This document shows, one piece after another, positions 16,202 through 43,041 of a stretch of 43,421 nt of DNA; position 1 is the stretch's first letter, and each line of letters opens with the position of its first letter. The stretch lies in the IMG/VR virus record IMGVR_UViG_3300045988_024923, positions 1 through 43,421 of that record. One strand, written 5' to 3'. Both the position numbers and the translations under genes were made by a program. The notes beneath the pieces are model-generated. The model did not search any database. It was given only the letters and a program-made list of their open reading frames with translations, and was not told where the DNA came from. The DNA is from a virus.

Positions 16202-19200
16202 ATGGCGACAAAGCCTGTATTTCGGAAAGTCACAACTGCGGCGGAAAGCCAGAAAAAGAACAAGGAGGAGCGGGCAAATACTGCCCGTTCCTCTGATAAG
16301 CCGGTATTCAGAAAAGTAACGACTGCGTGGGGCGGGGATTTGTCTGATGTTAAGGCTCCAACCCAGACGCAAAAACCTACTGTGCGAGGCCCGGCGCGCA
16401 GCAACAGCACTACGCCCAGCCGCAAGCAGTGGAAGGCCACCAATGGCGGGAGAAAAAGCACTACGGATGCGGGGAAGAACAAACCATCTGCACAAAAAAA
16501 GTCCTTCTTTGAGATTGCCACGCAGAATAAGACTCCGGGCCGCGTTGCGGAAAATGCACAGCCCCGGCAGACTTCTTATGCTGGGCAGCTTGGACAGGTA
16601 AGTCGGAACGCGGCAGCTCCTAATAGCCGGTACGATGCCGGGAATTTGCGGACAGCCCAGAAACAGGAAGTTGCTGCGCCCAGCATCGGCAATGCCAGAA
16701 AACTCGACGAGCCGACCTTTATGGAGCGGATTGGCAAGACCGTCACGGGCGGGGCTAAGTCTTCGGCGGCGGCCTATACCAATGTGCGAGGATACATTCA
16801 GGAAGGCACGCACATGGCGCGGGATGTGGATGTGTCCGGGTGGAACCGGGACCTGAACCGCTATCAATACGAACTGAGAAACGCAGACAACGATGCAGAC
16901 AGGGCGTACTGGCAATCAGAAATCGACCGGGTGCGCCGGAATATTCAGAACGCTGGGAAAGCAACCGCCGAATCCAACGCATCCGCACAGAAAAATTACC
17001 GGCTGGCAGATGAAATTGCAGCCAATGCAGAAAAAGACCTGACCCGTGCAAAACAGGGTGCGGGGGCTGTGGGGCGGCTGCTGGTAGACGCGGGGGCGTC
17101 TATGACCCAGAGCGCCCTTGACGCAATCCCCAATCTTATTACTGGCGGCGCAACGGGCATGGTCCCGTTTGCGGCGCGGGCGTTCGGCGGAGCGGCCCAG
17201 CAGGCACGGCAGGACGGCGCTACGTGGGGACAGCAGGGCCTTTACGGCGCAGCATCTGCCGCGAAAGAGGTTTTCACCGAAAAGATGTTCAATATTGCGC
17301 TTCCTTTTGCCAAAGCATACGGCGGCGGTGCGTTGGACGATGTAGTGGAGCGCGGCATTCGCAGTGCGGTAGACAAGTTTGCCAAAACGGAAGTCGGTAA
17401 AAAGGCGCTTGGATCGGCGCTGACTTTTGGAGCCGGAGCGGTTGGCGAGGGCTTGGAGGAGTTCATCGGTGATTGGATGGAATGGCAGCTGCCCCGCATT
17501 TATGGCGGTGACGTAGCGACGGCGCAGGAAACGCTTTCCGATTCTCTGTATGACTTCCTGGTTGGAGCCACGTCCGGCGCGATGGGCGGGCTTGTCAGCC
17601 CCAATACATACCGGTACGATCTGGGCAACACACAGACCGCACAGCGTGGCGTACAGGAGCGCACAGACGTTCAGGAGGGTACACGTACCACCACCGTACA
17701 AACGAACGCACAGACCCAGCAGGAGAACGCGCAGATGGCCATTCAGGAAGCCGTTCAGCGACAGACTGCGAGTAATCCCGTTTCTGCGGAGGAACAGGTC
17801 TTGCGGCAGCGAGAAGCCGCCGTGCAGAAAACCTTTACCGGCATTGCAGACAAGCTGGGGGACAGCGGCAGGAAGGCGTTTCAGACGGCGTATCAGGGGA
17901 CGGACCGTGGTGACTACGCCGGGGAATTTCTGCGGGCGTATCACGCAGGCATGACCAACCAGAAGAACCCCAACAGCACCAGCGCGGTATCCTTTGCGGC
18001 GTATGCGGCAGGGCAGAATGACGCGGCAGCGTCTCTTGCAAGAGAGAAGCGGGCGGCGCAGTTTGCCAAGACCGCCGGAACGGACAGCGGCCTTGTGTTC
18101 GACGATTATGTTTCCCGTGAAATGGACAGTGCTGTTGCCGACGAGGTAAACACCGTGGCAAAGGCATTGGGCGTTCGGGTGCAGATGAAAGATCAGGTAC
18201 TGGGCGGGCAGGCCAACGGCCAGATCACCGGCAGCGACGTTCTGATTGCAAAGGACGCGGTGGACCCTGCTTTGCAGGTGGTCGGCCATGAGTGGACCCA
18301 CCGTGTACAGGAGTTGGCCCCGGAGCAGTACCGGGCGTTCCGGGACGCTGTTACCAGTATGCCGGACGTGCAGGAAGCGACGAACATCCTGCTTGACCAG
18401 TACAACCGGGCGGGTGTTGAAACCAGCTACGAACAGGCATTGGACGAGGCTACCGCCAACTATGCCGGTGAGATGATCGCGAACAGCGACGTGCTGGACG
18501 ATTTCATCCAGAAGCACAGCGCCGACCGGACGCTGCTGCAAAAGCTGCGGGACACCATCCATGAAATCGTGGGCAAGCTGACCGGCAGAGCCAAGCGGCA
18601 GGCCCAGACGGTGGAGGGCAAACTGCAGGCGGCATTTGAAGCGGCCAGCAAGCAGGCGGAAAGCTTGCAGAACCAGCAGACTGATGGTAGAATGCAGGAA
18701 ACGAGATATGCCGTAAAGGAGGGCATGGACGATGGACGAGAAAACGAAATTGGCAGCAGAACTGACACAGGCAGCCGAAAAGAATATGGGCAGAGCCTTG
18801 ACCGAGAAGGAAAAGGCCAAACTGGACGAGTTCGCGGAGAGTTTTCTGCTTCTGCTGGACGATACGGAGGAGTAAATCCGTCCTTTGGGGCCAAGCCGGT
18901 TCGCACTTGGGCCGAAAGGAACACAGTTGAACCGAGCAAGGGCAGTGTGGCCTACGAGGAGCAGCAGGCGGCGGTAAACTACGGCGTGCCTAGCTTTGTG
19001 GTGGCGGATGCAGCATGGGCCAAGAACAAAGGCAACACACCGGCGTTTTCCTCCGGCGGGCAAATCTTTTTCCGGGAGACATTGCCGGAACAGAACCGTG
19101 GAATGATTACGCCTCACGAAGTCACCCATGTGATGAAGCAGGTAGGCTACAAGCCCTATCTTGACTTTGTGGAGCGGACCCCAGAAATGCTGAATATGAG

Positions 19201-22200
19201 TGACCCGGTGACCCGCATATTATTGGATCATGTCGCGAAGCATCAGCGTACCACGATGGAGAACGCAGACCCGTTGCGACTGTATGATGAATTCAATGCA
19301 ACTATCTATGGACATATTGCAACGGGGCAAACGGAAATGTTTACAGATGGAATTGGCATCCATGTGTTTCATGACTTTGCGGCGTATGCCAAAGAACTGA
19401 ACGAACTGCATGAGCGGTTTAAGGCTGACAACCAGAAAAAGGCGAAAGAAAAAACCAGATATGCCCTGAAAGACTACAGCGATGCGGAACAGCGGGACCA
19501 CCGGAAAAAGGCAATCGCCTATTTTGGCAAGACCTACAACTGGAATGAAACCGGCTACCTCACCCCGGCAGGGACAAAGCTGGACTTCTCCGGGCGGCAC
19601 GAGGGCGGCCCCGGCGGATACCGGACAGTAGACCACCGGGACATCCGGGACGCCATCAGCGAGGATTACGGCGGGGATGATTATTCCGGCTCCATGGTGC
19701 AGTTCATGAGCGAGGGCAATATCCGCATTTCACCGGAAAGCGGCGGTATCAACCTTTCCGTGGAACCCACAAAATCCCAGATGGATGCACTGTCGGACTT
19801 TATCGGTAAAAACCGGGGCGAAGTCATTCTTGATCTGGACACCCCAGATGGGCAGACGGTTTCCAGCACGGAGTATCCCAGGGGGACCCATTCCAGCAAG
19901 GTGCTGAATGACATCAAAGCATATTTCAAAGATGGCACGAAGCCCCATGTTTCGGAATTGGCGCAGTTCCTATCGTTGAAAGGCACGGAAAACGCGCAGG
20001 AGATCGCGGCGCTGAAACGGGAAAACGAGAGCCTGAAAGAGCGGGTTGAGTATTGGAAGGGCCAGACCAGACGGTCTCAGGGCGTAACCACCGACCGGAA
20101 ATCCGTTCAGAAGGCGGCGGACGCACTGGTAAAGAACTACGGCGCGGAGATCAGCGGCAGCGACATTGCCGGAGACCTGCAAAGCCTGTATGACTACATT
20201 GCCAGCGGCAAGGATGGCAGGGACGAGCTGACCTATGCAGAGGCGCGGAGACGGTCTGATGCCATTGCGGAGCGGATCGCAGAAAGCGCCGTGGAGGTGG
20301 ATGACCGGGCATACAAGGAATACGCTGGTCTGCGAAAGTATCTGAAAGACACCAAGCTGACGCTGACGGAAGCGGATGCCGCCGAGATCACGGACTTCAA
20401 CGAGTTCCGCAAGAGCTTGTTCGGCAAGCTGAAAATCAGCAAGGGCGAACACACCAATGTTGATCAGATTTATTCCGAACTGTCCAGCCAGTACCCGGAG
20501 TTTTTCAACGAAGCGCAGGAGACCAACATTTCCGACCAGGTGCAGCGAATCGCGGACGTGGCGAACCGGCTGTACAAGGTGACGGAGTACAACCCCTTTG
20601 AAGGCTACATGGGACAGGCCGTGGCGTCTATCTCCAATGACATTATGGACCGGTTCTTTGACCTGCCTCAGGCGAAAAAGACCTTTGCGGACCGGGCAGC
20701 GGAGCAGGTGCAGGATGCCAGATTTCAGGGCAGACAGGCGGCAAATGACGCTTTTCTGGCAGGACAGATGGCACAGGGAAAGCAGGACGCAAAGCGGCTG
20801 CGGAGCACCGCACAGGCACTGTCGAAGGAACGTACCCGGCGGGCGGAGCAGGTGCAGACCCTGAAAGAGCGCTACCGGGAAAAGGACGTGACCCGGCGGG
20901 ACAGCCAGAAGCGGCGGGAGCTGCGGGCAAAGATCACTCGCCATGCCAGCGCATTGTCTCAAAAGCTGCTGCGGCCCACAGACACCCAGCATATTCCGGA
21001 GAAAATGCGCTCCGCCGTGGCAAAGGTGCTGGAAAGCATCAATCAGGAAAGCAGCCCCAATGCACGATCGTTTACACTGGATCCGGTGACGAAGGAGCGG
21101 ATTTACAGGGAAAAGGGCACACCCACCAACCGGACGGCGGCGTTTCAGAATCTGAAAGAGCAGTACCAGCAAATCGCCAAAGAAGGCGATATGGTAGTAG
21201 ACCCGTCTTTGCTGGGTGACGAGGACGTGCCCGGTGGATTCAGCGAGGTTATCAAGATGGGGGACACCCGCCTTGCAGACCTGACCACAGAGCAGCTGCA
21301 AACCATGTGGAACGTGCTGAAATCTGTGGAGCATTCCGTGACTACGGCAGGCAAGACGCTGGCGTCGGAGAAATTCGCGACCACCAAGCAGTTTGCCGAT
21401 GCGCTCCGCATGGACGGCATGACCCGGCGGCGAAAGTTGGGGAACAACGTGGCAATCAGCCTGGAAACGCCCTATACGTTCTTTGCCCACTTCGGGCAGA
21501 CCGGCAAGGACATTTACCGGATGCTGCGGAACGCTCAGGATCAACAGGAGATCATGGCGCGGGATGTGGCAGAAAAGGTGCAGAAGGTCTTGGGCGATAC
21601 CGAGAAAAAAGGCCTGCGGAGCAACGCCGTAACTGCCATGAACGAGGAAACCCACCATTTCACCACGGCGGAGGGCCAGGAACTGACGCTGACCACAGCA
21701 CAAGCTATGGATCTTTATCTGCTGAGTGAACGGAAACAGGCGGAGGATCATCTGCTGAAAGGCGGCATCGTGCAGCCGGAGATCAAGATCCCAGGCAAGG
21801 CCAAAATCCCCAGAGGAACGGACGTGATCCATCTTTCCGCAGAGGATATCCAGTCCATTGTGAAGGCTTTGACTCCGGAGCAGATCAGGATCGCGGATGG
21901 CTTGCAGAAGCTGACCACCGGCACGCTTGCCAACTACGGCAACGAGGCCAGCATGAAAGCCTACGGCTATAAGAAATTCACGGAGCAGGACTACTGGCCC
22001 ATTAAATCTGCAAAGGAAGTACTGCACAGCTCCCCGGAAAAGGATAGCGGGAATGTGCGCTCCATTAAGAATATCGGCATGGCGCAGGCGGTAAACCCCA
22101 AAGCGTCTAACGCATTGGAAGTCCGGAGTGTGTTCAGCACATTTTCAGACCATGCCTCCGATATGATCGACTACGCGGCGTGGCTGTGCCCCATGGAGGA

Positions 22201-24286
22201 CGCGAACCGGCTGTTTAACTACGAGTTTGAGGACGGTGAGGGAAACAAAACTGGTGCGACAGTCAAGGGCTTTTTGGATGAAAAAGGCGGGGAAGGCTCT
22301 CAAGATTACTGGCAAAAGCTGATGGGTGACATTCAGAACGGCATTAATGAAAAGAATTTTGAGCCATTCAGCAAAGTGATTGTAAAGAAAGCCTTTTCCA
22401 ATTACAAAGCATCCAGAGTACTGTTCAATTTGAGAGTAGCCGGTCAGCAGCCGTTCGCATGGTTCCGGGCAAGAGATGTCTTAAATCATGTTGATATGGT
22501 AAAAGGCTTGACCAGCGGCGTAACGAAGGGCAGCGGATGGGAAAAGGCTGTGAAGTATTCCCCCATTGCCATGCGGAAGGACACGGGCAGTTTCGACGTT
22601 ACCTCCCCGTACACCCTGAATGACCGCTTTTACGGGAAAGAGGGCTTTATCAACAAGGTGAATGAAGCGGGCGGCATACTTGCCGAGGCGGCGGACGCTT
22701 TCACATGGGGAAAACTGTGGAACGCCTGCGAGTGGCAGGTGAAGCGGGAGAGGCCCAATCTGCGGGCTGGCAGCGGCGAATTTTACAGCGCAGTCAATGA
22801 AGTGTTCACCAACATGATCGACCAGACGCAGGTGGTAGACGGCATTTTGCAGCGCTCCAATATCATGCGCTCCTCAGACAGACTTGACAAACTGGCAACT
22901 TCCTTCATGGGTGAACCCATTATGAGCCTGAATGTGTTTATGCGAAAATGGGATGCCCTGCGGTATGAGGAAGACCCTGTTAAGCGTAAAGCGGCCATGA
23001 AGGCGTTGAGCCGATCACTTGCGGTTCTGATTTCATCAGAGGTCGCGACAGCGGTCGTACAGAGCCTTTCAGACGCAAAGCGGGATGACGATGATGACAA
23101 GGACTACTGGGAAAAGTTCATAGAAGCAATGACCGGTATTACCGGGGATGAAGAAACCATGACAGAAATCCTGAAAAATGTTGTCTTCGAGGGGAACGTT
23201 GGGCAGAACCTAAATCCGATCAATAAACTCCCCTATTTGAAAGACATCAACTCCATGTGGCAGGGATATAAGGTTGTTCGGATGGATTTAGGCGTGTACC
23301 AGGACAATGTAAAAGCAAGCAAAGCGTTTATAGAATCTCTTAACGGGCAAGGTGTAAAAACTCGGCAAGATGCGCTAACTACGGCGCTTGGAGCCGCAGG
23401 GGAATTTTGGGGAATCGCCGGTTCCAACCTCAAACGGGAAATCTACTCCGCAATCGACACCATCTTTCAGGCGACCGGGAATGTGGCGCTGCAATATGAG
23501 TGGGACAAACTGACGTACAACATCTACAGCACGTCCAACAAAGACCGTTACATGGGACTGGCGTTCAAGGCGCTGGAACAGGGCGACTTGACCACTTATG
23601 AGCACATCCGCAAGGAACTGAAGGACTACATGGCAGTGGACAGCACCAGCGTGGACAGCGGGATGCGAAGCCGTCTTGAAAAGAAGCAGGAAAAGGACGG
23701 GGATTACCGTCTACCCCAGAACGCCGCAAGCCTAATTGGGGCAAAAGACAGCTACGATGACAGCGAGGGCGAGGACAAATTCACGGAAAACGATCTCAGC
23801 TCCGATGACTACATCGCATACAGCCGGAGAAAGTCCGAGCTTTACAGTTCCGTGGAATCCGGGCTGAAAGACAGCCAGACGTTCCAAAAGTTCACCGGGG
23901 AGCAGAAGGACAAGGCCCTGTCCAGCGCGGAGACCTACGCAAAAAAGACGGCGCTGCATGAGGTGGACAACACCTATGAAATTACCGACAAATGGATCTT
24001 GAAAGCGCAGGAGGCGCAGAAGAAGTATGGCATTGACCCGGCTGTCTATGTGGCGCTGAAAACGCAGGTTTCCGAGATTGAAAGCGTCAAGGATAGGAAC
24101 GGGGAGACCATTCCCAACAGCAAGGGGCTGCTTATCATGCAGGCGGTTTACAACACGCCGGGGCTGCATGAGAACCAGCGGAACGCACTGTTTGAGTATC
24201 TGGGGGTAGGCAAAAGCATCCGGCATTACAACAAGGCGCTTGTGAACGAGAAAGTCCGAAAGAACGCCCAGCTGGCCGGGAAATAA
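16202..24286 (+). CDS. Giant polyvalent virion protein (2694 aa) with two zincin-like HExxH motifs
   Basis: RBS AAGGAGG. HEWTH at 18287-18301 and HEVTH at 19115-19129. N-terminal peptide KPVFRKVTTA is duplicated. Long coiled-coil stretches. Confidence 0.7.
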   Translation: MATKPVFRKVTTAAESQKKNKEERANTARSSDKPVFRKVTTAWGGDLSDVKAPTQTQKPTVRGPARSNSTTPSRKQWKATNGGRKSTTDAGKNKPSAQKKSFFEIATQNKTPGRVAENAQPRQTSYAGQLGQVSRNAAAPNSRYDAGNLRTAQKQEVAAPSIGNARKLDEPTFMERIGKTVTGGAKSSAAAYTNVRGYIQEGTHMARDVDVSGWNRDLNRYQYELRNADNDADRAYWQSEIDRVRRNIQNAGKATAESNASAQKNYRLADEIAANAEKDLTRAKQGAGAVGRLLVDAGASMTQSALDAIPNLITGGATGMVPFAARAFGGAAQQARQDGATWGQQGLYGAASAAKEVFTEKMFNIALPFAKAYGGGALDDVVERGIRSAVDKFAKTEVGKKALGSALTFGAGAVGEGLEEFIGDWMEWQLPRIYGGDVATAQETLSDSLYDFLVGATSGAMGGLVSPNTYRYDLGNTQTAQRGVQERTDVQEGTRTTTVQTNAQTQQENAQMAIQEAVQRQTASNPVSAEEQVLRQREAAVQKTFTGIADKLGDSGRKAFQTAYQGTDRGDYAGEFLRAYHAGMTNQKNPNSTSAVSFAAYAAGQNDAAASLAREKRAAQFAKTAGTDSGLVFDDYVSREMDSAVADEVNTVAKALGVRVQMKDQVLGGQANGQITGSDVLIAKDAVDPALQVVGHEWTHRVQELAPEQYRAFRDAVTSMPDVQEATNILLDQYNRAGVETSYEQALDEATANYAGEMIANSDVLDDFIQKHSADRTLLQKLRDTIHEIVGKLTGRAKRQAQTVEGKLQAAFEAASKQAESLQNQQTDGRMQETRYAVKEGMDDGRENEIGSRTDTGSRKEYGQSLDREGKGQTGRVRGEFSASAGRYGGVNPSFGAKPVRTWAERNTVEPSKGSVAYEEQQAAVNYGVPSFVVADAAWAKNKGNTPAFSSGGQIFFRETLPEQNRGMITPHEVTHVMKQVGYKPYLDFVERTPEMLNMSDPVTRILLDHVAKHQRTTMENADPLRLYDEFNATIYGHIATGQTEMFTDGIGIHVFHDFAAYAKELNELHERFKADNQKKAKEKTRYALKDYSDAEQRDHRKKAIAYFGKTYNWNETGYLTPAGTKLDFSGRHEGGPGGYRTVDHRDIRDAISEDYGGDDYSGSMVQFMSEGNIRISPESGGINLSVEPTKSQMDALSDFIGKNRGEVILDLDTPDGQTVSSTEYPRGTHSSKVLNDIKAYFKDGTKPHVSELAQFLSLKGTENAQEIAALKRENESLKERVEYWKGQTRRSQGVTTDRKSVQKAADALVKNYGAEISGSDIAGDLQSLYDYIASGKDGRDELTYAEARRRSDAIAERIAESAVEVDDRAYKEYAGLRKYLKDTKLTLTEADAAEITDFNEFRKSLFGKLKISKGEHTNVDQIYSELSSQYPEFFNEAQETNISDQVQRIADVANRLYKVTEYNPFEGYMGQAVASISNDIMDRFFDLPQAKKTFADRAAEQVQDARFQGRQAANDAFLAGQMAQGKQDAKRLRSTAQALSKERTRRAEQVQTLKERYREKDVTRRDSQKRRELRAKITRHASALSQKLLRPTDTQHIPEKMRSAVAKVLESINQESSPNARSFTLDPVTKERIYREKGTPTNRTAAFQNLKEQYQQIAKEGDMVVDPSLLGDEDVPGGFSEVIKMGDTRLADLTTEQLQTMWNVLKSVEHSVTTAGKTLASEKFATTKQFADALRMDGMTRRRKLGNNVAISLETPYTFFAHFGQTGKDIYRMLRNAQDQQEIMARDVAEKVQKVLGDTEKKGLRSNAVTAMNEETHHFTTAEGQELTLTTAQAMDLYLLSERKQAEDHLLKGGIVQPEIKIPGKAKIPRGTDVIHLSAEDIQSIVKALTPEQIRIADGLQKLTTGTLANYGNEASMKAYGYKKFTEQDYWPIKSAKEVLHSSPEKDSGNVRSIKNIGMAQAVNPKASNALEVRSVFSTFSDHASDMIDYAAWLCPMEDANRLFNYEFEDGEGNKTGATVKGFLDEKGGEGSQDYWQKLMGDIQNGINEKNFEPFSKVIVKKAFSNYKASRVLFNLRVAGQQPFAWFRARDVLNHVDMVKGLTSGVTKGSGWEKAVKYSPIAMRKDTGSFDVTSPYTLNDRFYGKEGFINKVNEAGGILAEAADAFTWGKLWNACEWQVKRERPNLRAGSGEFYSAVNEVFTNMIDQTQVVDGILQRSNIMRSSDRLDKLATSFMGEPIMSLNVFMRKWDALRYEEDPVKRKAAMKALSRSLAVLISSEVATAVVQSLSDAKRDDDDDKDYWEKFIEAMTGITGDEETMTEILKNVVFEGNVGQNLNPINKLPYLKDINSMWQGYKVVRMDLGVYQDNVKASKAFIESLNGQGVKTRQDALTTALGAAGEFWGIAGSNLKREIYSAIDTIFQATGNVALQYEWDKLTYNIYSTSNKDRYMGLAFKALEQGDLTTYEHIRKELKDYMAVDSTSVDSGMRSRLEKKQEKDGDYRLPQNAASLIGAKDSYDDSEGEDKFTENDLSSDDYIAYSRRKSELYSSVESGLKDSQTFQKFTGEQKDKALSSAETYAKKTALHEVDNTYEITDKWILKAQEAQKKYGIDPAVYVALKTQVSEIESVKDRNGETIPNSKGLLIMQAVYNTPGLHENQRNALFEYLGVGKSIRHYNKALVNEKVRKNAQLAGK

Positions 24287-39814: not shown

Positions 39815-40002
39815 CGAAGTGTTTTTGTGATCTTTGCGGAAAAGAAATACACAAGCTTCGGGACACTTATAGGGTCAGCGTGGAGAACAACGCTGACATT
39901 CCCTACGCAAGCGACCCGAACATAGTGGATGTGGGAGAAATATGCTCTGTCTGCGCAAAGCGTATCCACCAGACTGTGCAAGAGCTGAAACTGGAGGGCT
40001 GA
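39811..40002 (+). CDS. Small zinc-ribbon protein
   Basis: RBS GGAGGGAGG; CDLCG ... CSVC. Confidence 0.5.
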   Translation: MTKCFCDLCGKEIHKLRDTYRVSVENNADIPYASDPNIVDVGEICSVCAKRIHQTVQELKLEG

Positions 40003-40004
40003 CA

Positions 40005-40337
40005 ATGGCTGACTTAAAACCGTGCCCGTTTTGCGGGGGTAAAGCACGGCTGTTTGTAAATGGCGGTGTGAGAGTAATTTGCTCAGAATGCTATGTAGGC
40101 ACAATGATTCTGACGGACAATATGGAGCACGAAAGCAACGCCGTAGAAACGGTAATCGAGAAATGGAACAGGAGGGCTGAGGCGGTGCATGGGCGGTGGG
40201 TAACGCACTATCGAAGCGGAACGACTGTTGCCGAGGGGTATGTATCAACGTGCTGCGATATGTGGAACAACCGTAAGAGCGATTACTGCCCACACTGCGG
40301 CACGAAGATGGACGGAGGTGATAACCATGACGCTTAG
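40005..40337 (+). CDS. Lar-family-like protein (paralog 3) with an extra C-terminal zinc ribbon
   Basis: KPCPFCGG ... CSEC ... VIEKWNRR ... CPHCG. Confidence 0.6.
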   Translation: MADLKPCPFCGGKARLFVNGGVRVICSECYVGTMILTDNMEHESNAVETVIEKWNRRAEAVHGRWVTHYRSGTTVAEGYVSTCCDMWNNRKSDYCPHCGTKMDGGDNHDA

Positions 40338-40665: not shown

Positions 40666-41011
40666 GCAGTCCGGGTATTTACAGCGGCGGGACGCGGAGT
40701 TGGATGCGGCGTTCAACGCCGGGGCTGCCATGGCCTTGCAGTTTGCCACAGACACGCTCCAGATCACAATCCACCAGAAAAACGGGTGGGGGTTCGACCG
40801 GGTCATGCGCTTGACGCATGACTGGATCGATACCCAGCGCGAGTACAAACCGGCGCTGAACTGTAAGGACCCGGCTGCGGACGTGTGCCAGGAGCACATG
40901 GATCGCATTTTGGCGGAGATCATCCGGGATCGTATGACCTTGATTCCATTCCCGGAGCGATATCAAGAGCTTCGGAAAGTGACATATGGGAGGCAACATG
41001 ACAAACGATGA
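40658..41011 (+). CDS. Hypothetical protein
   Basis: 117 aa, within the early operon. Confidence 0.5.
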   Translation: MAKQSGYLQRRDAELDAAFNAGAAMALQFATDTLQITIHQKNGWGFDRVMRLTHDWIDTQREYKPALNCKDPAADVCQEHMDRILAEIIRDRMTLIPFPERYQELRKVTYGRQHDKR

Positions 41012-41195
41012 CAAAGCCCTGCTAAAGGCATATGCGGAAAACAACATGATCCTGGAGCAGGCTGCACGGCAGGTCTATATGCACCGCAATACGGCGGGCT
41101 ACAGGTTTGAGCGCATCAAGAAAGAGACCGGGTTAGACCCGCATTGTTTTTATGACTTGGTGGCACTGCTGCGGAAGATTGGGGAGTGCGTATGA
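40998..41195 (+). CDS. Small HTH protein
   Basis: RBS GGGAGG; LEQAARQVYMHRNTAGYRFERIKKETG. Confidence 0.6.
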   Translation: MTNDDKALLKAYAENNMILEQAARQVYMHRNTAGYRFERIKKETGLDPHCFYDLVALLRKIGECV

Positions 41196-41208: not shown

Positions 41209-41454
41209 ATGAGTACATTCCCGGAGCGGCTGCGGCAGTTGAGGGAGCGGAAGCGGATAAAGCGGTATGTATTGTCGGAACGGTGCGGCCTGCATTCGGA
41301 CGCTGTGCGGCGCTATGAAATGGGCGAAGCAACGCCGTCTATGGATGCCCTTCAAAGCCTTGCGGATGAACTGGGGGTGTCTGTTGACTATCTCATGGGG
41401 CGGACGGATTATCCACTGATGGTAAATATTTCAGCGCCTCATGATAAAATTTGA
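41209..41454 (+). CDS. XRE-family HTH protein
   Basis: RBS GAGGTG; LRERKRIKRYVLSERCGLHSDAVRRYEMGEATPSMDAL. Confidence 0.75.
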   Translation: MSTFPERLRQLRERKRIKRYVLSERCGLHSDAVRRYEMGEATPSMDALQSLADELGVSVDYLMGRTDYPLMVNISAPHDKI

Positions 41455-41500
41455 AAATTCCCCTTTTAAGGGGAAAAACGCTGTTGAACAGTGCGACAAT

Positions 41501-41540
41501 GGATGTGTGGGAGTGTATCTCACACATCCTTTTCTTTCCT
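41501..41540 (+). terminator. Rho-independent terminator ending the early operon
   Basis: 9-bp stem GGATGTGTG/CACACATCC followed by TTTTCTTTCC and a long pyrimidine tract. Confidence 0.7.
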
Positions 41541-41559
41541 TCATTTTCATTCTTTCTCT

Positions 41560-42095
41560 CTCCAACCCCGGCGGACGCCGGGAATATGCAGACGTAGCTC
41601 AGTCGGCAGAGCACCGCGCCGGGAGGTATGCGCAGGTTCAAGTCCTGCCGTCTGCACCAGATGTATGCTACCGCATTGCGGCACCGTGGAAGGGTAAGAC
41701 CGCTACAAGGGGCTTGCCTGTGCGCTGTATGAAAGCGGCAGGGCGAAGAATTTATTATTTAGCTGGACCCGGCTTGTGTAAAAGAAACGGATGCGACCGA
41801 CATACCGGCGCAGGGCTGAAAAGTTCCGTGGTTAGCGCGTACAGAACCATGCAGAGCGAACTCCGAGGCGTGTTCATCGAAAGGTATGCGGAAGTGGTGA
41901 GGTAACGGCTGCCCTTGGGCAAGGCCGTTGTGTAGGGTAGTATGCTTGCCCGGTTCTGTACGGCTAATTGTGTAAGCAACTCAAATGGAAAGAATAATGC
42001 CCAATGTGGGCGGCGTTGTAGCCCTTCGGGGCGGGTAAAGTCTGCTATGTAAGGCCAAGGGGTGGGGGCTGGTAGCAAAATAATGTTAAGAGGTT
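41560..42095 (+). ncRNA. Candidate large structured non-coding RNA (includes the tRNA-like element)
   Basis: Longest non-coding stretch in the genome. C(UUCG)G hairpin 42021-42032, CUUG hairpin 41904-41929, triloop hairpin 41999-42011 and an 11-bp long-range helix 41838-41848/41952-41962. No credible ORF. Confidence 0.5.
41588..41659 (+). ncRNA. tRNA-like element or pseudo-tRNA: intact acceptor, D and T arms and CCA, with a defective anticodon arm
   Basis: Acceptor GCAGACG/CGTCTGC, D arm GCTC-AGTCGGCA-GAGC, T arm GCAGG-TTCAAGT-CCTGC, then A-CCA. Only 18 nt (41614-41631) sit where 21-22 are needed, and no 5-bp stem with a 7-nt loop can be drawn. Confidence 0.55.
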
Positions 42096-42102
42096 ATGCG
42101 AA

Positions 42103-42555
42103 ATGAAAAAGTATATTGGCACGAAAATCATTGAGGCGGTCCCCGCTATTCGCAAGGGCTGCAGAGTCTATGAGAAGGACCAACCCATCCCCAAGAGCAT
42201 GACCCCTGATGGGGAGGGCTATAAGATTTACTACCCGGACGGGTACGAGTTCTTTAGCCCGAAGGCGAAGTTCGAGGCTGAATATCGTGAAATAGACTGC
42301 CTAAGTTTTGGCCTTGCCATTGAAGCAGCGAAAAAAGGGAAGAGGATTGCCCGTCGCGGTTGGAATGGCAAGAACCAGTATGTCGAGCTTGCGGAGCGAA
42401 TCAGCTATGAGAATGCTACGCATGAGGTGATCAACGCCAATCACGAAGCTATCGGCAACAAAGCACTTGCTTTTGTCGGCACATCCGGTGTGCAGCTCGG
42501 CTGGCTGGCATCGCAGGCGGATATGCTTGCCGATGACTGGATGATCGTGGAGTAA
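42103..42555 (+). CDS. DUF2829 (Tad2-like) domain protein with an N-terminal extension
   Basis: The C-terminal half FGLAIEAAKKGKRIARRGWNGK ... GWLASQADMLADDWMIVE matches the DUF2829 signature. Confidence 0.7.
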   Translation: MKKYIGTKIIEAVPAIRKGCRVYEKDQPIPKSMTPDGEGYKIYYPDGYEFFSPKAKFEAEYREIDCLSFGLAIEAAKKGKRIARRGWNGKNQYVELAERISYENATHEVINANHEAIGNKALAFVGTSGVQLGWLASQADMLADDWMIVE

Positions 42556-42591
42556 ATCATTACCGGTAGCAAAATGAAAGGGAGTGAGCGC

Positions 42592-43041
42592 ATGGCTGGC
42601 GGAGCGCCAAGGAAATGGAAAAGCGTAAAGGCGATGCAAGAAGCCATTGACGCTTATTTCAAAGAGTGCGAAGGCGAACCGTTTATCGGAGATGACGGCT
42701 GCGCTGTGCGAGATAAGTACGGGGTGCCGATTATCATCAACGCAAAGCCACCGACGGTAACAGGGCTGGCGCTGTCGCTTGGGTTCACAGGAAGACAAGC
42801 ATTGCTGGATTATCAGGCAAGGCCGGAGTTCGCGGACACGGTTACGCGCGCGAAGTCCCGCTGCGAGGAATACGCCGAATCCCGGCTGTACGACAAGGAC
42901 GGTGCCAATGGCGCGAAATTCTCGCTTGGCTGCAATTTCGGCTGGCGGGCCACGGAAGAAAAGGCGGAGACGGCGGCAGGCGGCATTGTGTTGCTGCCTG
43001 CGGTGATGGATACGCCGAAACCTCCGGAGGATGAGACGTGA
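42592..43041 (+). CDS. terS: Terminase small subunit
   Basis: RBS GAAAGGGAG. Motifs PTVTGLALSLGFTGRQALLDY and KFSLGCNFGW. The stop overlaps the terL start. Confidence 0.75.
   Translation: MAGGAPRKWKSVKAMQEAIDAYFKECEGEPFIGDDGCAVRDKYGVPIIINAKPPTVTGLALSLGFTGRQALLDYQARPEFADTVTRAKSRCEEYAESRLYDKDGANGAKFSLGCNFGWRATEEKAETAAGGIVLLPAVMDTPKPPEDET

Follow-up and report, generated by a model that had tools for sequence, protein, structure and literature searches.

What occupies the 648-nucleotide (nt) gap that separates a regulatory gene from the packaging genes near the end of a viral contig from IMG/VR (IMGVR_UViG_3300045988_024923; 43,421 nt, hereafter the window)? The original prediction, made from the letters of the window, proposed that the gap (positions 41455-42102) harbours a large multi-helix RNA beside a tRNA-like module, possibly of a new class. 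We found that the gap is real: it is bounded by the end of an XRE-type helix-turn-helix (HTH) open reading frame (ORF) at 41454 and by the start of the next Pfam-matched gene at 42103. The stretch is non-coding and modular, consisting of a terminator, a tRNA-like element, a core of about 320 nt and a leader module of about 85 nt, and the proposal of a large multi-helix RNA, possibly of a new class, was borne out by strong covariation over more than 100 homologous phage loci and by the lack of a matching Rfam family. The reading that we prefer, at a probability of about 60%, is that positions 41588-42079, part of a phage tRNA island, specify a non-coding RNA unit of several parts, in which the core belongs to an unclassified family, is excised by tRNA enzymes and acts in trans.

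Homologues of the core RNA

A blastn search of the GenBank phages returned only two records, both unannotated and from human-faecal phages, with 72-74% identity. The tRNA-like scaffold is kept between these records and the window, the anticodon-arm region differs in length, and a block at about 41715-41832 is almost identical in all three. The family was retrieved by searching IMG/VR with an exact 22-mer (GCAGGGCTGAAAAGTTCCGTGG, 41810-41831), which matched at least 119 contigs. Among the matches listed there were 92 unique 772-nt extracts, giving clusters of 37, 25, 22 and 3 and three singletons, and the core regions of the extracts were 48-96% identical to the window. Conservation was sharply bounded, with its onset at the tRNA-like element and a drop at about 42079; the part common to all clusters runs from 41660 to about 41975, and the final ~85 nt were present in a subset only. 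The helix-rich region downstream of the tRNA-like element, put at about 440 nt in the original prediction, was accordingly reduced to a conserved core of about 320 nt, the last ~85 nt being a separate module.

A search of 185,579 species-representative genomes with a slightly relaxed pattern matched one contig, an Oscillospiraceae metagenome-assembled genome (MAG). An independent anchor in the 3' domain, unrelated to the 22-mer, recovered 37 true members, with the 22-mer exact in 35 and carrying one substitution in the other two; the near-invariance of the junction Pc (see below) is therefore not a retrieval artefact. Each locus examined had one core copy. The core family was shown to be specific to human-gut phages.

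Covariation and strand of the core

The fold of the 3' domain was analysed with a covariance model (R1) of 141 positions, which gave exactly one full-length match in each of 45 sources; every cluster and the MAG are represented among them, as is the window, where the match spans 41822-41974 with 129 bits. In the covariance-model alignment of 43 distinct sequences, 96.1% of 1040 cells were paired, compared to 30-47% when the partners were slid, and compensatory changes were found in 24/26 pairs with a covariation score of 0.675 (at most 0.144 for slid partners). An alignment of 18 sequences made with MAFFT only paired the curated structure in 97.7% of cells (27-57% when slid) with both-side changes in 15/32 pairs, and from it RNAalifold predicted the long-range helix Pd and the hairpin at 41904-41929. 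For the 5' domain (41717-41829), 95.2% of cells were paired against 37-49% when slid, and 11/29 pairs were compensatory, mainly in hairpin Pa. When all clusters were aligned together with MAFFT, a single RNAalifold run performed poorly in the variable parts, and per-cluster and covariance-model-based alignments were used. The homologues and their covariation thus speak in favour of a structured RNA.

G-U pairs were abundant, occurring in 18/18 sequences of the MAFFT-only alignment at the first pair of Pd and in 12/18 at the base of hairpin Pf. We placed the structure on the plus strand only, because these pairs would be C-A mismatches on the other strand, and all flanking tRNAs lie on the same strand as the structured RNA. 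The comparison established a family of plus-strand RNAs of about 300-330 nt in the tRNA islands of gut phages, with a predicted fold that is maintained by compensatory changes and a nearly invariant junction.

Structure of the core

The core (41660-41975) has about nine helices. Its 5' region (41660-41716) is predicted by per-cluster RNAalifold and inspection to form two hairpins, the second with a conserved G(N)GUAAG. Hairpin Pa (41717-41742; CC-UGU-GCU / AGC-GCA-GG, with an internal loop) showed both-side changes in seven of nine pairs. It is followed by an A/U-rich linker and by hairpin Pb (41761-41774; AGCUG-GACC-CGGCU), in which two of the five pairs were compensatory, for example G-C to U-A in loci L027 and L090. 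After an A-rich linker comes the nearly invariant three-way junction Pc (41787-41829), which is made up of an outer helix ACGGA/UCCGU, a hairpin UGCG-A-CCG...CGG-CGCA and a mini-hairpin GCU-GAAA-AGU with a GNRA tetraloop. Clusters that share about 50% identity elsewhere are 99-100% conserved in Pc; compensatory changes in its inner hairpin were found in L006 and L027.

The 3' domain (41830-41969) is built on the long-range helix Pd (41830-41848 with 41952-41969), which encloses a loop region with a conserved GAGGCG, a linker and hairpin Pf. Compensatory changes were found in 14/16 Pd pairs among the 43 distinct sequences. Using duplexfold, we recovered Pd in 92/92 extracts with sequences that are unrelated between clusters, the strands being CGUACAGAACC/GGUUCUGUACG in the window and GGGUGCCGG/CCGGCACCC, CCUCCCGG/CCGGGAGG and ACAGGAAUGCAAAUAG/CUAUUUGCAUUCUUGU in other clusters; in every extract about 20 nt after CCGUGG were complementary to a stretch about 110-140 nt downstream that ends just before the conserved YUGUG. 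An alternative RNAalifold pairing of CGUGG with YUGUG was rejected, as it conflicts with the outer helix of Pc and neither side varies. Pd has an inner extension GCAGAGC/GCUUGC (41851-41857 with 41944-41949). The conserved GAGGCG lies at 41865-41870, and a conserved linker GGAAGUGGYGUGG leads from this region to hairpin Pf (41904-41929). Pf has 6 bp in its lower helix and 4 bp in its upper one, is capped by a CUUG loop and carries a 2-nt bulge, AG, in its 3' strand. All 10 Pf pairs showed a compensatory change somewhere in the family, with 98.8% of cells paired. The motif YUGUGWA (41969-41975) closes the core at the end of Pd in nearly all members.

Five helices had been proposed for the region, and four of them were retained. 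The 11-bp long-range helix lies inside Pd and has the covariation support of that helix, as does the CUUG-capped hairpin at 41904-41929 in its own right; the GCCCA/UGGGC and C(UUCG)G hairpins were conserved in the 43-locus subset that carries the 3' module described below. The fifth, an 8-bp helix (41848-41855 with 42041-42049), was dropped: helices with better support occupy both of its strands, and the 5' one lacks conservation. The motif GCAGGGC(G/T)GAA does occur twice in the window, as had been reported, but other clusters do not retain it as a repeat.

Boundaries of the core and the tRNA-like module

Without exception, the first base of the core adjoins the CCA of a tRNA or tRNA-like module. 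We found three unrelated types of upstream module, each ending in CCA and followed without a spacer by one and the same core start (GATGTATGCTACCGC, GAUGUAUGCUACCGC): the 72-nt element of the window, an odd tRNA-Trp-like element and a non-tRNA element of about 93 nt (GCGGCAU...AUGCCGUACCA). In related loci, tRNAs called by ARAGORN end 145-178 nt before the anchor. On the other side, in clusters B and D and part of cluster A, a tRNA-Gly or tRNA-Gln begins about 2-15 nt after YUGUGWA. The CCA abutment upstream and the close tRNA downstream together led us to propose that the core is excised by tRNA-processing enzymes.

The 72-nt element of the window (41588-41659, plus strand) has a 7-bp acceptor stem GCAGACG/CGUCUGC, a D-arm, a T-arm, a discriminator A and an encoded CCA. 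Its description as tRNA-like was correct: positions 41588-41656 matched the Rfam tRNA family (RF00005) with 52.2 bits (gathering score 29), the only Rfam 15 family found in the whole window at gathering. ARAGORN called neither a tRNA nor a transfer-messenger RNA (tmRNA) in the window, rejecting the element because only 18 nt separate the D- and T-arms, where 21-22 are needed. Alignment to the tRNA covariance model placed 9 nt instead of 13 at the anticodon arm. The element therefore keeps the 7-bp acceptor, D-arm and T-arm of a cloverleaf and lacks the 5-bp/7-nt anticodon arm of a functional decoder, and with this arm truncated it cannot decode. A tmRNA was also considered and rejected: in addition to the missing ARAGORN call, the Rfam trace (tmRNA_permuted, E = 9.5, 11 bits against a gathering score of 47) is at chance level.

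Directly 5' of the element, a hairpin CCCGGC-GGAC-GCCGGG followed by AAUAU was read from the sequence (41567-41587, plus strand). The identical hairpin and a (N)UAU leader precede the equivalent module in L103 and L115, and analogous hairpins with AUAU/CAAU leaders precede modules at other loci; we infer that it is an RNase P leader.

The tRNA-like module belongs to a large set. The short version carried by the window (CCGCRCCRGGAGGUA) was present in 13 distinct module sequences at 17 or more loci, and the T-stem showed compensatory changes among sister modules (GCAGG/CCUGC, GCUGG/CCAGC and GUUGG/CCAAC). At least 37 distinct modules of 63-93 nt share the identical acceptor stem GCAGACG/CGUCUGC and ACCA and have hypervariable interiors, some differing by the anticodon arm alone and some having no cloverleaf at all. 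They might serve as decoys for tRNAs or as handles for processing. Related contigs place the core RNA within arrays of 6-9 modules that end in NCCA at a spacing of 100-200 nt; some of the modules are genuine tRNAs (for Gly, Gln, Met and other amino acids), and the rest are tRNA-like RNAs. The arrays extend up to 1.5 kb and lie at -1500 to -150 from the core anchor in L048, L063, L097 and others (oriented coordinates). The window carries a minimal array of one tRNA-like module, the core and the 3' module.

We also observed the recurrence of the ~93-nt RNA-like module (GCGGCAUAGGUGCCCCGUAAGGGG...GCAAUGCCGUACCA), whose closing stem resembles an acceptor and which carries CCA; its interior is not that of a tRNA, and it gave no Rfam match. 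It lies at -242 to -149 from the anchor in L003, L005, L016, L040, L063 and L097, and 3' of the core in L045 and L049.

The 3' leader module

The 3' leader module (41997-42079, plus strand, ~85 nt) is separate from the core. It contains a hairpin GCCCA-AUG-UGGGC, a hairpin GCCC-UUCG-GGGC, a conserved GGGUAAAGUCUG and a terminal hairpin (42043-42077) with a purine loop AAGGGGUGGG followed by AAAA, in which C-G to U-A and U-G to C-G changes were found. The module was present in 43 loci, every time on the plus strand and usually directly after the core; in L009, L074 and L049 it lies 470-1100 nt from the core. It ends in ...GGYRRCAAA(A/C), and a ribosome-binding site (RBS) and start codon follow about 5-25 nt on in nearly all of 39 distinct sequences. 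The first genes after the module differ and include several kinds of terS (small terminase), a Tad2-like gene and others. The loop AAGGGGYGGG of the terminal hairpin is conserved and resembles a Shine-Dalgarno (SD) sequence in its purines. In our reading, the module provides the first late mRNA with a structured 5' end or a standby site.

The module also holds four G-tracts, in GGGGCGGG (42027-42034) and, about 22 nt on, in GGGGUGGGGG (loop 42057-42066). A G-quadruplex or a ribosome standby site is conceivable here.

The surrounding genes

The gene upstream of the gap encodes the XRE-type HTH protein (41209-41454; Pfam HTH_3, E 6e-11), and its unit ends in an intrinsic terminator on the plus strand with a 12-bp stem and a 5-nt loop (41501-41529) and a T-run to 41539. 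Our terminator scan found this structure as it had been described, and the pyrimidine tract reported just 3' of it is present. The terminator (41501-41539) lies outside the RNA and sets its 5' context. The first gene after the RNA unit, on the plus strand, is a Tad2-like gene (Thoeris anti-defence 2, DUF2829; 42103-42555; PF11195, E 2.5e-20) with an RBS AAGAGG at 42089-42094, followed by terS on the same strand (42574-43041; PF16677 GP3_package, E 4.3e-19); the RBS and both genes are likewise outside the RNA.

Further upstream we noted a PucR-type HTH gene (HTH_30, 40986-41195) just before the region and a Lar-like restriction-alleviation gene (39942-40337; PF14354, E 2.3e-12) about 1.1 kb away. 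The RNA is placed at a junction, with an anti-defence and regulatory block on one side and the packaging genes on the other, and in the window anti-defence genes flank the region on both sides, the Tad2-like gene directly downstream and the Lar-like gene upstream. Elsewhere in the window, a single plus-strand ORF of 2694 aa (16202-24286) presumably encodes a giant tail or tape-measure-type protein. The phage itself had no close relative in the GenBank phage set.

Proposed biogenesis and function

In our proposal, one transcript from the head of the late (packaging) operon carries both the unit and the tRNA-like module or modules beside it. The 5' end of the core would be made by 3' processing at the CCA of the upstream module, and its 3' end by RNase P where a tRNA follows. 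The window has no downstream tRNA; there the 3' leader module would separate the core from the Tad2-like/terS mRNA, of which it probably forms the structured 5' end. Judging from the arrangement of the genes, we put moderate confidence in co-transcription at the head of the late operon and in excision by RNase P and 3'-processing enzymes.

Once released, the core would be a stable structured RNA with a function in trans, comparable to ROOL and GOLLD. The invariant junction (and the GAAA loop) would let it engage a host macromolecule or itself, and it would not regulate one particular gene in cis. Our confidence in a trans-acting role of the ROOL/GOLLD kind is low. What comes after the core varies, with tRNAs in some clusters and differing genes in the rest. 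A search within 4 kb for a recurrent protein partner found no family in more than 27 of about 120 loci, which argues against a dedicated protein partner encoded nearby.

In cluster C (22 loci, e.g. L078, -1850 to -761), the core is preceded by a tRNA-Gly(UCC), and just 5' of this tRNA we observed a tyrosine-integrase-like ORF in the same orientation. In phages of this cluster the RNA may adjoin the phage attachment site (attP) and, in a lysogen, may be transcribed from the promoter of the host tRNA.

Several points weigh against this interpretation. Folding energy does not mark the region out: the minimum free energy (MFE) compared to shuffles gave z = +0.58 on the plus strand and -1.6 on the minus strand, i.e. 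no excess stability, so that the stable helices stressed in the original prediction did not stand out and the case rests on comparative evidence. The alignment fitted by the covariance model leans towards the modelled structure, but the MAFFT-only alignment agrees with it. As it was retrieved from a fixed 22-mer, the family may be broader than the members collected here and include more distant ones. For the GAGGCG helix there are two alternatives, the pairing of CCGAGGCG with YGGYGUGG and a short UCC/GGA hairpin, and the counted option shows one-sided changes only, with no covariation. The transcript ends, the stability and the processing are all derived from the gene arrangement. In the window, which has no tRNA after the core, the RNA could stay in the 5' untranslated region of the late mRNA. 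Finally, the trans-acting function is drawn by analogy with ROOL and GOLLD, which are themselves of unknown function.

Alternative explanations

The whole region could instead be a cis-acting 5' leader of the late operon, a processive antiterminator or a translational control element that remains attached to the mRNA and controls terS and the genes downstream. Its placement between the terminator and the first late genes agrees with such a role, and so does the occurrence of the unit just upstream of terS or terL at many loci. The late-operon leader had been named in the original prediction as an alternative, and we found that it suits the 3' module, with its SD-like loop AAGGGGYGGG and, for nearly all 39 distinct sequences, an RBS 5-25 nt further on, but not the core. 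The core has tRNA genes or unrelated small ORFs after it in clusters B, C and D and part of A, adjoins an integrase in cluster C, is embedded in tRNA arrays of up to 1.5 kb and can be parted from the 3' module by 470-1100 nt (L009, L074, L049). With the two separable and the downstream genes variable, at most the 3' module fits a leader role; the constant position before homologous genes that would mark a riboswitch-like element was not found for the core. We consider a leader function for the whole region unlikely.

The tRNA-like modules and the core might also form an anti-defence cassette, serving as decoys or sponges for tRNA-targeting nucleases or for RNA-sensing immunity and co-expressed with the anti-Thoeris gene. 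Defence nucleases that cleave the anticodon arm are widespread (PMC13056530), and the 37 or more module variants with one acceptor stem and hypervariable or deleted anticodon arms also count in its favour, as do a Tad2-like gene immediately downstream and a Lar-like gene upstream. This support is purely contextual, however. Apart from the window, few loci have the Tad2-like gene next to the unit, and the ORF cluster that begins at about +260 in 13 loci is the terS family, not Tad2; moreover, the core RNA does not have the shape of a tRNA, and no known decoy RNA family was matched in Rfam. We regard this explanation as quite unlikely.

That the conservation reflects a site in DNA, such as a pac or cos site for the terminase, attP or another recombination site, appears very unlikely to us. 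The region lies directly upstream of terS, where pac and cos sites often occur, module boundaries are recombination hot spots with mosaic 5' and 3' parts (e.g. L034), and cluster C adjoins an integrase and tRNA-Gly. A double-stranded protein-binding site, however, predicts neither the compensatory pairing in 24/26 and 11/29 pairs, nor the abundant G-U pairs and strand-specific structure, nor the occurrence of the element inside tRNA arrays in the orientation of the tRNAs. The cos/pac alternative of the original prediction, taken purely at the level of DNA, does not explain the compensatory changes or the strand-specific G-U pairs.

Protein coding through either of the two ORFs listed for the region (41441-41905, plus strand; 41755-42078, minus strand) is scarcely credible: both exist mechanically, as listed, but neither has a Pfam match at E<=1, they overlap the tRNA-like element or the covarying helices, homologues carry indels of 1, 2, 5, 15 and 20 nt within them, not all multiples of three, and substitutions are paired across helices and show no codon pattern.

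Relation to known RNAs

The original prediction had named ROOL and GOLLD as candidates for the region. This identity was not upheld: an Rfam scan of 1 kb (41300-42300) at E<=10 gave no ROOL, GOLLD, RNase P, hepatitis delta virus (HDV)-type ribozyme, group I or II intron or prohead RNA (pRNA), and scans of 13 homologous loci, including scans at E<=1, found tRNA only. A phi29-type prohead RNA was set aside on the same scan of the window, which had no pRNA match at E<=10. ROOL and GOLLD profiles are held in Rfam, from which they were taken in earlier work (PMC12286853).

ROOL is a large multi-helix ncRNA of Firmicutes phages and prophages, often near tRNA islands, with no associated protein or known function (PMC12286853). 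The core shares its genomic habitat, being found in IMG/VR viral contigs with flanking tRNAs or tRNA-like modules, but at about 320 nt, below the size at which the original prediction had put ROOL, with no model match at E<=10 and with conserved sequences and a helix layout that are unrelated, it differs from ROOL. ROOL forms a homo-oligomeric RNA-only nanocage. GOLLD is a phage and prophage RNA found near tRNAs or even containing them, with one member directly downstream of tRNA-Met (PMC12286853). Both have a variable 5' part and a better-conserved part, the 5'-most region of the core varying by cluster and its central junction being invariant. GOLLD is, however, usually longer than 800 nt and conserved in its 3' half; the core has about 320 nt (about 490 nt with both flanking modules), no covariance-model match and another architecture.

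Theta ribozymes have about 50-70 nt and fold into a nested double pseudoknot. These minimal HDV-like ribozymes occur beside phage tRNA genes in Caudoviricetes of the human gut and are implicated in the processing of tRNA 3' trailers (PMC10879173). The core likewise begins at the 3' end of a tRNA, but inspection by eye revealed no P1 complement from +1, the first base varies between clusters (G, U, C) and no HDV-type Rfam match was found; the core is probably not a ribozyme of this type. The gene arrangement around the core is also that of tRNA punctuation, as in mitochondria and in MALAT1-mascRNA, where a tRNA-shaped element abutting a long RNA gives the RNase P/RNase Z sites that define its ends. 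Those systems are eukaryotic or organellar, whereas here the arrangement is deduced from the sequence and the tRNA-like element lies 5' of the long RNA. The modules resemble canonical phage tRNAs in having an acceptor stem, D-arm, T-arm and encoded CCA and in forming arrays with genuine tRNA-Gly, tRNA-Gln and tRNA-Met; they differ in that the element of the window has no 5-bp/7-nt anticodon arm and the sister modules are hypervariable on one fixed acceptor stem.

A search of the literature for the exact sequence found no description of the core RNA. The IMG/VR csRNA catalogue holds motifs of 29-151 nt only, so at most fragments of the core would be listed in it; this comparison covered the catalogue outside its supplementary files. 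The array of the Minerva preprint was considered and is a different one, linked to a reverse transcriptase. To our knowledge, ROOL and GOLLD are the only large structured RNAs of phage tRNA islands so far, and the core looks like a new class within this kind, to which it is related in kind and not in sequence.

The core adds to these RNAs a class that is independent in sequence and fold and abundant in the human gut virome, and its smaller size makes structure probing and cryo-EM easier. The exact CCA abutment provides a directly testable rule of biogenesis, tRNA-punctuated excision, and with a covariance model of the core family, hundreds of phage genomes could be cleared of spurious ORF calls. 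The fixed acceptor stem with hypervariable or deleted anticodon arms points to an unexplored tRNA mimicry in the conflict between phage and host. It is possible, though on the whole doubtful, that the core joins GOLLD and ROOL as an independent, third class of large phage RNA in tRNA islands, with a catalytic or self-assembling core of its own (Pc and the GAAA loop), working with anticodon-less tRNA mimics that share one acceptor stem. If this were true, the unit would be an RNA-only cassette by which gut phages manipulate or shield the tRNA and translation machinery of the host late in infection.

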